Source: Pseudomonas phage GEC_K2
Length of the DNA stretch: 42,769 bases
Direction: 5' to 3' (one strand)
Sequence record: PP836134.1
The notes below the pieces were generated by a model, which did no database searches, was not told where the DNA came from, and was given only the letters and a program-made list of their open reading frames with translations. A program made the translations under genes and the position numbers. Of the stretch, positions 31,653 through 33,006 are shown one piece after another. Numbering within the stretch: the first letter of the stretch is position 1; the number at the start of each line of letters is the position of its first letter.

Positions 31653-32795
31653 TTAAAACGGTATGTCGTCTTCGTAATTGTCCGACGGATTATGCGTCGC
31701 TTCGCTGCCAAGGTCAAGACCCATAAGAACGCCGCGCAGGTTTTCGCCGAAAAATACGACTTTGTTTGCGTCCGGTGCGAAATGCGCTTTCTTAAACGCA
31801 TGTTCTACGGAAAGAAGCAACTTCGCAGAAAAGCCCATTCGTTCCGGCAAGCCTTCGATTTTGTACGTCGAAGCTTCTTCTTTGTGCATCTTCGACAAAA
31901 CCGCCCCGTCGTCGAAAAATACGTTTCCGTTCGGGCTGAACGACTGAATCGCGCGAACGCCGTTGTAAAAATCGTCGGGAACCGGCCAAGGGTTCAAGCC
32001 TTCAACTTCGAAGACGACTTGGTAATTCGGGTAACGTTCGCCGTAAAGTTGCGTTTTGATAAACGCCCCGTTTTCGAAATAGAACGTTGCCGACGACGCC
32101 GAAAAGCCGAAGCCGGTAAGGGCCGGGCCAGCCTTGGCGACAGCGACCGCCGCGCACTTCGGAAGCATCATGCCGGGCGGAAGGTCGATACCGTGCCACG
32201 CTTCCAGCAAGGCCGCCCCGTTGGTCGCGACGGCGCTTCCGGCTTGCAGCAAGACGGCGGCATAGGTCGCATTCGGTGCGCCGTCTGTCGCAAGCCCTGC
32301 GACCGCAGCGAAGGCCGTTTTAATCCGGTCGTCGATTGTGGCGCATTGCGGGTCGGGCGCGGTAATTGGCACGTCGTCGAAGCCCACACAAGGCACCAAC
32401 GCCCGGAACGCGCCAGACGATACGGCAAGGGCGTTCGCGGTAAGCTGCGTAATCGACAGTTCTTCGCCGACCTTCGACAGCGCGTCGATAAACTGCAACG
32501 TATGCGGGCACGCTACCAAGTCTTCTTCGATAGGATGCGCGACGGTCAAAACCCCGTCGGAAGCCGCCGCCCAATTGTGGGCAATATGCCCGAACTGAAC
32601 GTTCGTCGGCCCGGCCTTTTTCTGCGCGATGGCAACGAACTTCAACGCCGCCAAAAGCGACGCCGCAGGGCTTGGCCCTTTGGCTTTGTTCTTTCCGGCT
32701 GCGGCTTGCTTTCGCGCCCTTGGCTTGCGCTTCGTCGGTTCTGCGGCTGGCGCTTCGTCTTCGGGCGGAAGCGGAATATTACTGTCGATTTTCAT
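31653..32795 (-). CDS. replication protein with an SSB-type C-terminal acidic tip (ends NYEDDIPF); candidate ssDNA-binding protein
   Basis: C-terminus EDDIPF matches the bacterial SSB tip DDDIPF. Lys/Ala/Pro-rich N-terminal region. Start ambiguous between 32816 and 32795. Confidence 0.45.
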   Translation of the reverse strand: MKIDSNIPLPPEDEAPAAEPTKRKPRARKQAAAGKNKAKGPSPAASLLAALKFVAIAQKKAGPTNVQFGHIAHNWAAASDGVLTVAHPIEEDLVACPHTLQFIDALSKVGEELSITQLTANALAVSSGAFRALVPCVGFDDVPITAPDPQCATIDDRIKTAFAAVAGLATDGAPNATYAAVLLQAGSAVATNGAALLEAWHGIDLPPGMMLPKCAAVAVAKAGPALTGFGFSASSATFYFENGAFIKTQLYGERYPNYQVVFEVEGLNPWPVPDDFYNGVRAIQSFSPNGNVFFDDGAVLSKMHKEEASTYKIEGLPERMGFSAKLLLSVEHAFKKAHFAPDANKVVFFGENLRGVLMGLDLGSEATHNPSDNYEDDIPF

Positions 32796-33006
32796 TTTCG
32801 GCCCCTTCTTCGTCAAGTTTTGAAATTGCCGCTTGAAGATAGTTCGCCAAGTCTAGCGTTTCTTCTAGCGCGTGTTGCAGCCAATCGCGAAGCGACAACG
32901 GGTTATTATCCGTCGTTACGCCGTACTTTGCAAGTCCAACGATTGAACGTTGCAACAGTAATTCGCGGTTCTTTTCTACGTTTTTGTCGGGCGATGTTTC
33001 GGCCAT
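32779..33006 (-). CDS. small hypothetical protein
   Basis: 75-aa ORF between the helicase and SSB-like genes, overlapping both ends. Confidence 0.35.
   Translation of the reverse strand: MAETSPDKNVEKNRELLLQRSIVGLAKYGVTTDNNPLSLRDWLQHALEETLDLANYLQAAISKLDEEGAENENRQ

Follow-up and report, generated by a model that had tools for sequence, protein, structure and literature searches.

In the window, by which we mean the whole stretch of DNA that was analysed (42,769 nt of Pseudomonas phage GEC_K2, PP836134.1), a block of replication and recombination genes lies on the minus strand, and one of these genes encodes a sliding clamp whose C-terminus resembles that of bacterial SSB. The following features are referred to throughout:

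29590..31641, minus strand: DNA polymerase (gp27), 683 aa; phrog_1252, E=2e-227
29593-29613, minus strand: C-terminus of the polymerase, ...KTAALSFF, similar to a clamp-binding motif
31653..32795 (including the stop codon), minus strand: phage DnaN-type beta sliding clamp, 380 aa, corresponding to Kakheti25 gp28; phrog_947, AF2 and Foldseek
31656..31703, minus strand: disordered C-terminal tail of the clamp, aa 365-380, EATHNPSDNYEDDIPF; pLDDT <50
31656-31676, minus strand: SSB-Ct-type tip YEDDIPF; match to SSB C-terminal tips
32679..32795, minus strand: disordered N-terminal arm of the clamp, aa 1-39; pLDDT <50
32779..33006, minus strand: gp29, a protein of 75 aa encoded between helicase and clamp; phrog_11184, unknown function
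33011..34666, minus strand: RadD-like SF2 helicase (gp30), 551 aa, a candidate reader of the tip; RadD structure 6JDE
34659..35756, minus strand: Cas4-domain exonuclease; phrog_1990, E=1e-111
about 34662-34805, minus strand: extra C-terminal Cys4 domain of the exonuclease, homologous to a free tip-carrier protein
36268..37065, minus strand: phage SSB of the DUF669 type (gp33); Pfam DUF669, E=1.5e-11; SSB in RefSeq
37124..37849, minus strand: Sak4-like (AAA_24) annealase (gp34), a candidate reader of the tip; Pfam AAA_24, E=8e-17; Sak4-like in RefSeq

A preliminary description of this DNA had placed the clamp gene at 31653-32816 and had given its product a length of 380 aa. The length holds, counted from an ATG at 32795, but the coordinates are those of the maximal open reading frame, which begins at a TTG at 32816. 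The ATG is preceded, at a spacing of 6 nt, by the Shine-Dalgarno sequence AAGGGG, identical to the one that serves the polymerase gene, and no Shine-Dalgarno sequence was found at TTG 32816. Because such a sequence occurs at the ATG alone, the true start is, on sequence grounds, ATG 32795, which gives the 380 aa of RefSeq gp28. The frame has its stop at 31653, and the product ends in ...SDNYEDDIPF, confirming the C-terminus (NYEDDIPF) that had been reported. The clamp DNA is 99.5% identical to the Kakheti25 gene annotated as replicative clamp, and in Pseudomonas phage 73/Kakheti25 (Septimatrevirus) the homologue is already annotated as a beta sliding clamp.

Queried as a single sequence, the clamp drew no match from the Pfam DnaN models or from PDB chains; with nothing useful from these direct searches, it was recognised via its family profile and a structure model. 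Against PHROGs, the protein matched phrog_947, "DNA polymerase processivity factor", over aa 37-364 (E=1.8e-79). The profile of the clamp family, searched against PDB sequences, matched H. pylori DnaN (E=4e-4) in a collinear alignment across 220 positions that includes G-x-YP-x-Y and sets the clamp segment QLYGERYPNYQVV against the DnaN motif of H. pylori, TKLIDGNYPDYQKIL; what had been called a vaguely DnaN-like segment is, by this alignment, a genuine DnaN motif. The AF2 model (pLDDT 85.3, pTM 0.79) consists of a beta-alpha-beta domain repeated three times, and its top 50 Foldseek matches in the PDB, those of P. aeruginosa and S. maltophilia included, are bacterial beta clamps without exception (E 2e-18 to 9e-17; TM 0.67-0.75), the best of them with TM 0.70-0.74 over ~360 columns. 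The preliminary description had wavered between a phage SSB of non-canonical fold and a clamp-like protein with an SSB-type tip, and had proposed structure prediction as a check: AF2 and Foldseek returned a beta clamp and no SSB fold, in favour of the second identity. By its modelled fold, then, gp28 is a DnaN-type beta sliding clamp, and, the fold having been modelled as a single chain, it would be expected to form a closed ring as a head-to-tail homodimer.

Bacterial DnaN and the phrog_947 clamps share with this protein the three domains, a length of ~330-380 aa and the motif G-x-[YF]-P-[ND]-Y, and DnaN, too, has a partner polymerase with a C-terminal motif of the clamp-binding type. Unlike cellular DnaN, to which it is only ~12-18% identical and whose Pfam models do not score, the phage clamp has a basic disordered N-terminal arm and an SSB-type tail, comes with no cognate loader, and is partnered by a family-B-like polymerase rather than by Pol III alpha. 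Among the 58 annotated genes none is called a clamp loader, and the unassigned proteins, at 190 aa or less, are too small to be one. The N-terminal region had been described as rich in Lys, Pro and Ala; the first 39 aa are indeed so composed, and AF2 predicts them to be disordered (pLDDT <50). They include a conserved basic RxRK stretch, in which R26 and R28 of the arm are nearly invariant, and a short N-terminal motif of the I-P-L-P type, and the basic arm is found alike in relatives with and without the tip.

At the other end of the protein, the tail, whose last 9-15 aa are HNPSDNYEDDIPF, is left undocked in the AF2 model (pLDDT ~43), with no docking in cis on the clamp. Its near-identity to the bacterial SSB tip, pointed out before, was borne out: YEDDIPF stands against MDFDDDIPF in E. 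coli SSB, with which P. aeruginosa SSB is identical in the last seven residues, and the logo of 133 unique tails, [DE][DEN][YMF][DE]DDIPF, matches MDFDDDIPF over eight positions, from -8 to -1. Proline stands at -2 in all 133 tails and phenylalanine at the end of 129; D is found at -4 in 114 and at -5 in 112, D or E at -6 in 97, and Y, M, F, I or L at -7 in 82. The tip is also conserved among homologues, as its reading as an SSB tip presupposed, with 118 of 120 (down to 52% identity) ending in PF, mostly as DDIPF. In the clamp, the last five residues are 80-99% conserved, as against ~30-40% for the roughly 15 residues before them, a linker of variable length that ranges from 10 to >70 aa. When all stop-to-stop frames of 30 aa or more in the whole window were examined, none but the clamp ended in [ILVMT]P[FYW]. 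Because the clamp is the sole such frame, because PF recurs in nearly all homologues, and because the tip is conserved above its linker, the tail is not a product of chance. An overlap with the ribosome-binding site of the next gene was considered as a cause of this conservation and rejected, since the Shine-Dalgarno sequence of the polymerase gene falls 3' of the clamp stop codon and the same peptide is also conserved on other carriers in other contexts.

The tip keeps the host consensus across clamps that are ~25% identical to one another, and does so among phages of alpha-, beta- and gamma-proteobacterial hosts. Some clamp variants, among them ...DDNFPPF, depart from it and resemble the tail of the HK620 SSB. 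In the literature that was searched in full text, no phage clamp, helicase or adaptor is described as having an SSB-type tail; the clamp tail thus appears to be new, and natural carriers of SSB-Ct other than SSBs seem to have gone undescribed until now.

Directly downstream of the clamp gene lies the gene for gp27. That a family-B polymerase is encoded beside the clamp had been stated in the preliminary description, and of this the adjacency stands, the clamp gene being 11 nt upstream, whereas the family-B assignment comes down to weak, local similarity (Pfam DNA_pol_B E=3e-4, below the cut-off; local matches to Pol alpha and Pol II with E 1e-5 to 5e-3). In all loci and genomes compared, the polymerase gene adjoins the clamp gene. 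The polymerase C-terminus resembles a docking motif of the clamp-binding type (the clamp-binding motif, CBM, is defined as Q-phi-x-[LM]-[FL]), and 40 of 52 unique relatives, with or without a clamp tip, end in FF (e.g., KQISFF, KQLQFF and ASLFF).

On the other side of the clamp gene, gp29 occupies the position that in many relatives belongs to a small Cys4 protein. An HMM of that Cys4 protein had no match in the window, and gp29 is unrelated to it; phage Shy encodes both a gp29-type protein and the Cys4 carrier. [quoted passage not shown] The helicase matches the structure of E. coli RadD, 6JDE, with E=3.2e-47 (aa 4-411 to 2-391), and its relatives are often named RadD by JGI. The DUF669 SSB has no acidic tip and ends, after a Gln/Gly/Pro-rich linker, in ...APWGQR; among relatives, 50 of 51 unique DUF669 SSB tails have xW[GA]x near the end. 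The SSB gene neighbours that of Sak4. One locus that had been considered as a Sak4-less genome with a tip, L045, was set aside: a Walker-A ATPase occupies the Sak4 position there.

The tip is not confined to clamps. In most relatives whose clamp is tipless it is found on the small Cys4 protein (phrog_23504), encoded between helicase and clamp, and in phages of the 9g/JG012 type the RadD-like helicase is the carrier. Homologues of the 9g helicase have the tip at their terminus in 116 of 120 cases, several with the exact ...MDFDDDIPF, and the helicase of Hafnia phage yong3 ends in ...DADYVPF, which is off the host consensus and similar to the HK620 tail. Some tails hold two copies of the tip. 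Across 67 non-duplicate loci, the tip is on the clamp only in ~31, on the small Cys4 protein only in 31 and on both in 1, and the remaining loci have neither carrier (3) or a degenerate end (1). The exclusivity of clamp and Cys4 protein as carriers at these loci gives a Fisher p of ~7e-12, kinship ignored. Genomes that are whole or nearly so have one carrier each: in the window it is the clamp, 9g and JG012 have the tip on the helicase, and Shy, Baskent_P4_1, Vibrio CA8 and RHEph05 on the small protein. As judged from these sequences, there is usually one tip carrier per genome, and the tip moves among clamp, small Cys4 protein and helicase, so that it is not specific to the clamp; nor should its role be, since helicase or adaptor is the carrier in most relatives. 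The carrier is, without exception, the helicase or one of the two genes just downstream of it, and the DUF669 SSBs of the relatives examined never carry the tip. At three loci (L036, L037 and L040), all of which retain Sak4 and SSB, no carrier was detectable in the DNA examined, which implies that the tip is dispensable. Kakheti25, 73, DLP1 and the E. coli phages Shy and 9g are in culture.

We infer that the tip binds SSB-Ct pockets. The leading hypothesis is that phages hijack host SSB-interacting proteins in this way, which we find plausible: the tail would be a portable SSB-Ct-type docking tag of the phage replisome that is read by the host, a reading to which we give a probability of roughly 45% (and the same to a host reader of any kind), whereas naming the protein that reads the tip is speculative. 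On this proposal, the gp28 clamp would serve as processivity factor for the polymerase encoded directly downstream, and its disordered linker and tip (...NYEDDIPF, as against ...FDDDIPF in the host) would form an "SSB-Ct handle" for the phage replication machinery. Two such handles would be displayed by a clamp dimer; the phage DUF669 SSB would have none, and relatives would place the same peptide on the RadD-like helicase or the Cys4 adaptor. The most likely readers would be host proteins with SSB-Ct pockets, and the first candidate, because a ring clamp is encoded and a loader is not, would be the chi-psi arm of the host clamp loader, whose recruitment through chi would bring the host loader to forks coated with tipless phage SSB. 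Fewer than half of viral clamps are accompanied by a loader. Chi is the sole link between Pol III and SSB, the chi-psi of P. aeruginosa binds the conserved SSB C-terminus, and chi binding needs the free C-terminal Phe of SSB (as the +Gly mutant indicates), a requirement that the invariably terminal position of the tip fits. Even so, chi specifically is a doubtful choice of reader, and we likewise hold it unlikely, if worth stating, that a large group of proteobacterial siphophages (Septimatrevirus, Lokivirus, Queuovirinae and numerous relatives from metagenomes), equipped with a polymerase of their own, an orphan beta clamp, a RadD-like helicase and a tipless DUF669 SSB, join this machinery to the host SSB interactome via one repeatedly moved tip that here recruits the host chi-psi loader. 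The phage clamp is ~14% identical to that of the host, which we counted against loading via the host delta subunit.

A host reader is favoured because the motif stays at the host consensus across divergent clamps and proteobacterial classes, and because AF2 docks the tail in cis on neither clamp nor helicase. A further argument comes from a switch of the tip from IPF to PPF between closely similar genomes: identity is 98-99% for Sak4, for the helicase and for the exonuclease, and 97.8% for the primase. Polymerase (98.8%) and SSB (98.0%) are similarly alike across the switch, and for both of these another IPF genome is equally close. None of the phage proteins compared co-varies with the switch, as might be expected if the reader were encoded by the host. 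Against a host reader, there is precedent for phage-encoded or phage-homologous readers (HK620 Sak4 and E. coli RadD, respectively), and the variants ...DDNFPPF on clamps and ...DADYVPF on the yong3 helicase leave the host consensus. We also counted against the proposal the three loci that do without a tip carrier, and the fact that most relatives bear the tip elsewhere than on the clamp. Recruitment of RNase HI or ligase as a universal purpose of the tip was also considered and is weakened by 9g and JG012, which have their own RNase H and ligase and are still tipped.

The HK620 precedent suggests that the tail might instead recruit the phage's own Sak4 to clamp, helicase or adaptor, the tail of an HK620-like SSB having been moved to other replisome proteins. 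The DUF669 protein of HK620 is an experimentally shown SSB whose NDYPPF tail is bound by HK620 Sak4, and these last six residues are needed both for Sak4 to bind ssDNA coated with the SSB and for the stimulation of annealing; the window and all seven cultured relatives examined have the Sak4/DUF669 SSB pair in the same operon, and the variants ...DDNFPPF and ...D[YF]VPF look like NDYPPF. Though a serious rival, this is one that we think unlikely. The neighbouring SSB has a conserved tip of its own (...PPWGxR, in 50/51), which by analogy with HK620 would be the more natural handle; Sak4 is 99.1% identical through the IPF-to-PPF switch; L036, L037 and L040 hold Sak4 and SSB with no visible tip carrier; and the model does not require the exact nine-residue host tip found on some helicases. 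A role for the tail as a surrogate SSB-Ct that activates the phage RadD-like helicase, in cis, via the small protein or via the clamp, is a second serious rival, though a still more doubtful one. E. coli RadD binds SSB-Ct with a Kd of 5.4 uM in a pocket of its RD1 domain, and its ATPase is raised ~3-fold by SSB-Ct independently of DNA; ATPases of this family are switched on by a peptide that the phage SSB lacks. The phage helicase is a RadD homologue (E=3.2e-47), no carrier other than the helicase lies more than two genes downstream of it, and in the clamp-borne case the helicase would be coupled to the clamp-polymerase pair. When the residues of the RadD pocket were scored (T16, L17, F20, L44, L113 and L147; R21, R49 and R145), the six hydrophobic positions and R145, as Lys, were kept in 70-76 of 78 phage helicases, but no conserved basic equivalents of R21 and R49 were found among the 78, and reversing the charge of just one of the two is enough to destroy binding in RadD. 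Moreover, AF2 run on a naturally tip-bearing helicase with 85 sequences left the tail free (its last seven residues have pLDDT 38), helicase identity through the IPF-to-PPF switch is 99.1%, and the tipless L036 and L040 have the same pocket residues.

Display of the peptide might also be an end in itself. As a decoy, abundant SSB-Ct produced early would titrate SSB-interacting proteins from host SSB, with the effect that host replication restart and repair are blocked or that phage DNA is shielded from ExoI, RecJ and RecQ; an exact or near match to the host tip, interchangeable carriers and the two copies on some tails would all suit such a role. We regard it as improbable, given that the tip is not found on early proteins at large but always on replisome proteins from a single operon, or on a domain copy of one, that there is usually one carrier per genome, and that titration, with abundant SSB tetramers and micromolar affinities, would need very high expression. 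By analogy with the acidic C-terminal tails of T7 gp4 and gp2.5, which have a terminal Phe, bind T7 DNA polymerase and are interchangeable, the tail could provide a second tether between clamp and polymerase or between helicase and polymerase: it is acidic, ends in an aromatic residue, sits on helicase or clamp, and the polymerase is always the clamp's gene neighbour. In this clade, however, the polymerase already has a tail of the clamp-binding type, and between L033, a PPF genome, and L013, an IPF genome, the polymerases are 98.8% identical; T7-type tails do not copy the host DDDIPF, which leaves the eight-position match to SSB-Ct unexplained. A polymerase contact is therefore, in our view, quite improbable. 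Scarcely credible are the two readings in which the tail serves the clamp protein alone. That gp28 is a non-canonical SSB, as the preliminary description had allowed, has the SSB-like tail as its sole support and is refuted by the three-domain DnaN clamp fold together with the separate DUF669 SSB in the genome; the clamp had no match to an SSB family in Pfam or PHROGs, and its model contains no OB or gp2.5-like fold. A tail that folds back as a plug into the pocket where the clamp binds its partners would suit the hydrophobic end, which is like that of clamp-binding motifs, but DDIPF falls outside Q-phi-x-[LM]-[FL] and the modelled tail is undocked, for which reasons the tail was rejected both as a CBM and as a cis plug.

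Bacterial SSB-Ct is the docking peptide on which genome maintenance in bacteria centres, and a drug target besides. The phage tail is like it in lying at the extreme C-terminus, in following a disordered linker whose length varies, and in its eight-position logo. It differs in being carried not by an OB-fold SSB but by a sliding clamp or, in relatives, by a RadD-like helicase or the small Cys4 protein, and in number, with four tips per SSB tetramer as opposed to the two that a clamp dimer would show. HK620 has in common with the window a module of Sak4 and DUF669 SSB, and a short PF-ending tail after Asn and Asp; in HK620, however, it is the SSB that has the tail, and the host DDDIPF is not matched, whereas here the SSB ends in ...PPWGQR and it is the clamp tail that follows the host consensus. 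The phage helicases, homologous to E. coli RadD, keep its hydrophobic pocket residues and one basic residue, but are without two of three essential arginines, and the 9g-type protein itself bears the tip, with no cis docking in AF2. T7, for its part, relies on thioredoxin and not on a ring clamp.

If the tail is read by the host, phages would here clearly be mimicking a short host motif, and this would suggest by what route the numerous loader-less beta clamps of phages reach DNA; should the clamp-borne tip recruit chi-psi, a host machine would load a foreign clamp. If, on the other hand, it is read by the phage Sak4 or the RadD-like helicase, it would reveal the wiring of a widespread replication and recombination module.

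Host range was considered as the factor that decides which protein is the carrier and was rejected, because arrangements differ among phages that infect P. aeruginosa, S. maltophilia and E. coli. Where the helicase bears the tip, a fused Cys4 domain was sought and is absent, the tail there being a plain acidic linker. Searched against E. coli genomes, the 3' end of the 9g helicase gene gave matches confined to the 3' ends of ssb genes, at marginal values (E 0.09-4) that are suggestive only of a capture of the tip from ssb at the DNA level.

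The window is a near-complete genome of a siphovirus of the Pseudomonas phage 73/Kakheti25 type (Septimatrevirus), with 99.5% identity to NC_017864 over a 6.2-kb stretch around the gene considered here. In Kakheti25, gp28 is annotated as "DNA polymerase processivity factor" or "replicative clamp", and published genome papers repeat the clamp label without comment on the tail. The two genes on which the argument turns are:

31653..32795, minus strand: clamp gene, 380 aa, equal to Kakheti25 gp28, C-terminus ...SDNYEDDIPF
[quoted passage not shown]

The end at 31653 proposed in the preliminary description stands, whereas the implied TTG start at 32816 does not: inspection of the upstream sequence found no Shine-Dalgarno sequence for this codon, and the ATG at 32795 has one (AAGGGG) 6 nt upstream. 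As a single sequence, the protein matched nothing in Pfam or in a PDB sequence search. It belongs to phrog_947, "DNA polymerase processivity factor" (PHROGs, E=1.8e-79, aa 37-364), and a profile of 71 homologues matches bacterial DnaN collinearly (E=4e-4); the internal segment earlier called vaguely DnaN-like, QLYGERYPNYQVV, lies inside this match, aligned with TKLIDGNYPDYQKIL of DnaN. AlphaFold2 predicts a confident core of three beta-alpha-beta domains (residues 40-364; overall pLDDT 85.3, pTM 0.79) between disordered residues 1-39 and 365-380, and the top Foldseek matches of this model in the PDB are all bacterial beta clamps (E ~2e-18, TM 0.70-0.74, ~360 columns), those of P. aeruginosa and S. 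maltophilia among them. Because of this evidence from PHROGs, the DnaN profile, AlphaFold2 and Foldseek, we identify gp28, by homology and predicted fold, as a clamp of the DnaN type rather than an SSB. Of the two readings first offered, structure prediction and search thus favor a clamp-like protein with an SSB-type tip; a non-canonical SSB is contradicted by the beta-clamp fold and by the separate DUF669 SSB. Since phage DnaN-like clamps are known and gp28 is already annotated as one, this part of the result is ordinary.

In the window, no reading frame of 30 aa or more other than that of the clamp has an ending of the SSB C-terminal (SSB-Ct) type. The likeness of NYEDDIPF to the SSB tip, noticed at the outset, is borne out, and far from being unconserved in homologues, the ending recurs as PF in 118 of 120 (down to 52% identity), mostly as DDIPF. 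Conservation reaches 80-99% in the last five residues and about 30-40% in the preceding ~15, which vary in length. The logo of 133 unique tails, [DE][DEN][YMF][DE]DDIPF, agrees with the nine-residue E. coli SSB tip MDFDDDIPF at positions -8 to -1, the hydrophobic position -7 among them. In E. coli SSB this tip is preceded by PP; the SSB of the host P. aeruginosa keeps DDDIPF and has its last seven residues in common with that of E. coli. Acidic C-terminal tails have a precedent in T7. The polymerase ribosome-binding site does not explain the tail, because it is located past the clamp stop codon. Natural variants occur in related viral contigs: the final two tip codons of L010 (11128-11136) hold two substitutions, which give ...DDISV, and the clamps of L016 and L033, whose replication proteins are ~98-99% identical to at least one IPF-type genome, end ...EEDDNFPPF.

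The tip behaves as a movable module. Among the best 150 of 1,336 clamp representatives (of 50%-identity clusters, E<=1e-3), about one third bear it and the remainder stop directly after the core; when 154 representatives are placed on a rough NJ tree, at least 34 changes of tip state are needed, compared with 36-44 for shuffled states, and the tip is thus very labile. Across 80 related viral contigs, clamps of at least 54% identity have the tip, except that of L010, and most at 32-49% are tipless. These loci with tipless clamps have, between the genes for the helicase and the clamp, one for a small protein (73-111 aa; CxxC...C...C pattern) that ends ...D[IV]P[FY]. This protein is phrog_23504, which has no assigned function, and a Pfam search placed it in no family; its gene is unannotated in some deposited genomes (e.g., Baskent_P4_1, 37980-38183). 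Once the tip is taken off, the remaining core shows homology to the Cys4 domain at the C-terminus of the Cas4-like exonuclease (hhalign probability 93%, E=2.7e-7):

34662-34805 of the window, minus strand: extra C-terminal Cys4 domain of the exonuclease, homologous to the free phrog_23504 tip-carrier
L058 9379-9621, L082 26125-26355 and others: further sites for this homology

Tip carriers in 67 non-duplicate loci, most of them partial contigs, so that the carrier of a locus scored as "neither" may sit outside the contig
Clamp only (including two PPF variants): about 31 loci
Small protein only: 31 loci
Both clamp and small protein (L046): 1 locus
Neither (L036, L037, L040): 3 loci
Degenerate clamp end ...DDISV (L010): 1 locus

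The two distributions are close to complementary (Fisher p ~7e-12 over the 67 loci, uncorrected for phylogeny). L045, counted as clamp-only, combines a clamp tip with a tipless copy of the small protein. In the metagenomic L036, L037 and L040, the clamp is tipless and no tip carrier was detected in 11-16 kb each; these contigs nevertheless retain Sak4, the DUF669 SSB and the RadD-like helicase.

In cultured phages with whole or near-whole genome sequences, each genome has a single carrier.

Tip carriers in cultured phages
Clamp: the window
Small Cys4 protein: E. coli phage Shy, Pseudomonas phage Baskent_P4_1, Vibrio phage CA8, Rhizobium phage RHEph05
SF2 helicase: E. coli phage 9g (...ELPPDFDDDIPF), Pseudomonas phage JG012 (...SYADLDDDIPF)

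The carrier does not track the host, which was rejected as its determinant: it differs among phages that infect P. aeruginosa, S. maltophilia and E. coli. Homologues of the 9g helicase bear the tip in 116 of 120 cases; several end ...VPMDFDDDIPF, which reproduces the E. coli SSB tip in full, and in a few another copy lies internally. The tails of four such homologues (P0330, P0347, P0366, P0379) hold one internal and one terminal DDDIPF; established SSB-Ct readers need a free carboxylate, which an internal copy does not have. At the 3' end of the 9g helicase gene (L084, i.e., phage 9g, 9945-10064), the last 27-49 nt match only annotated ssb genes, at their 3' ends, in 19 of 5,426 E. coli genomes (27 nt at 96% identity, E 0.09-4), a statistically marginal hint that the tip may have been captured from an ssb gene.

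The DUF669 SSBs of these phages never bear the acidic tip (51 unique tails). All but one have xW[GA]x close to the end, in a conserved ...PPW[GA]x[RKQ] ending (50/51; ...APWGQR at 36271-36288 in the window), a non-acidic tip that follows a repetitive Gln/Gly/Pro/Ala-rich linker and could, by analogy with phage HK620, be a handle for Sak4. As to the family-B polymerase first described as the clamp's neighbor, the adjacency holds (its gene lies 11 nt downstream), while similarity to family B is weak. The polymerase ends ...KTAALSFF (29593-29613, minus strand), and 40 of 52 unique relatives likewise end in FF (KQISFF, KQLQFF, ASLFF) whatever the tip status of the clamp. Judged by sequence, ...AALSFF resembles the clamp-binding motif Q-phi-x-[LM]-[FL]; the polymerases of the more distant Queuovirinae 9g, JG012, CA8 and RHEph05 do not have a motif of this type.

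Three classes of protein are candidate readers of the tip, and we rank host SSB-interacting proteins first, if not by a wide margin. Proteins such as chi-psi would read the tip: chi alone connects Pol III to SSB, the chi-psi of P. aeruginosa binds SSB at its conserved C-terminus, and a single Gly added after the terminal Phe nearly abolishes chi binding. The phage DUF669 SSB cannot recruit chi. These phages encode a ring clamp, with no clamp loader annotated, a combination that is common and unexplained among viruses. The tip keeps to the host consensus even in very divergent phages, and a switch from IPF to PPF took place between genomes whose replication proteins each have, in one or more IPF genomes, a counterpart of ~98-99% identity. 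Phage Sak4 is a second candidate, on the precedent of HK620, whose DUF669 SSB ends NDYPPF and recruits Sak4 through these six residues, a tail that the tip variants ...DDNFPPF and ...DADYVPF resemble.

The third candidate, the phage helicase, is a clear RadD homologue (6JDE, E=3.2e-47), and SSB-Ct binding stimulates the ATPase of E. coli RadD. There, the SSB-Ct pocket is formed by T16, L17, F20, L44, L113 and L147, framed by R21, R49 and R145; of 78 phage helicases, 70-76 keep the hydrophobic positions and, with Lys in its place, R145, but R21 and R49 are unconserved. An AlphaFold2 model of a naturally tip-bearing helicase (85 aligned sequences) leaves the tail undocked, with a pLDDT of 38 in its last seven residues and 86 over the whole model. 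The helicase gene of the window (33011-34666, minus strand) is annotated as "DEAD box helicase" or "type III restriction res subunit", and its RadD homology includes the zinc-ribbon region.

The SSB-Ct as a hub motif and the RadD-SSB and Sak4-SSB-tail interactions are known. Full-text literature searches found no SSB-Ct copy on a sliding clamp, no alternation of the tip among clamp, Cys4 adaptor and RadD-like helicase, and no mention of a module whose SSB is consistently tipless; these features are directly testable.

The small upstream gene gp29 (phrog_11184) overlaps the clamp start by 17 nt (32779-32795), and 8 nt (34659-34666) are shared by the genes for the helicase and the exonuclease, which suggests that the minus-strand replication operon is tightly packed and probably translationally coupled. 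The disordered N-terminal arm of the clamp (32679-32795, minus strand) has a conserved basic RxRK stretch in tip-bearing and tipless relatives alike, and part of the family shares a short N-terminal motif, I-E-N-x-[VI]-P-[IL]-P (KIDSNIPLP in the window); the arm could bind DNA or be a second docking motif.
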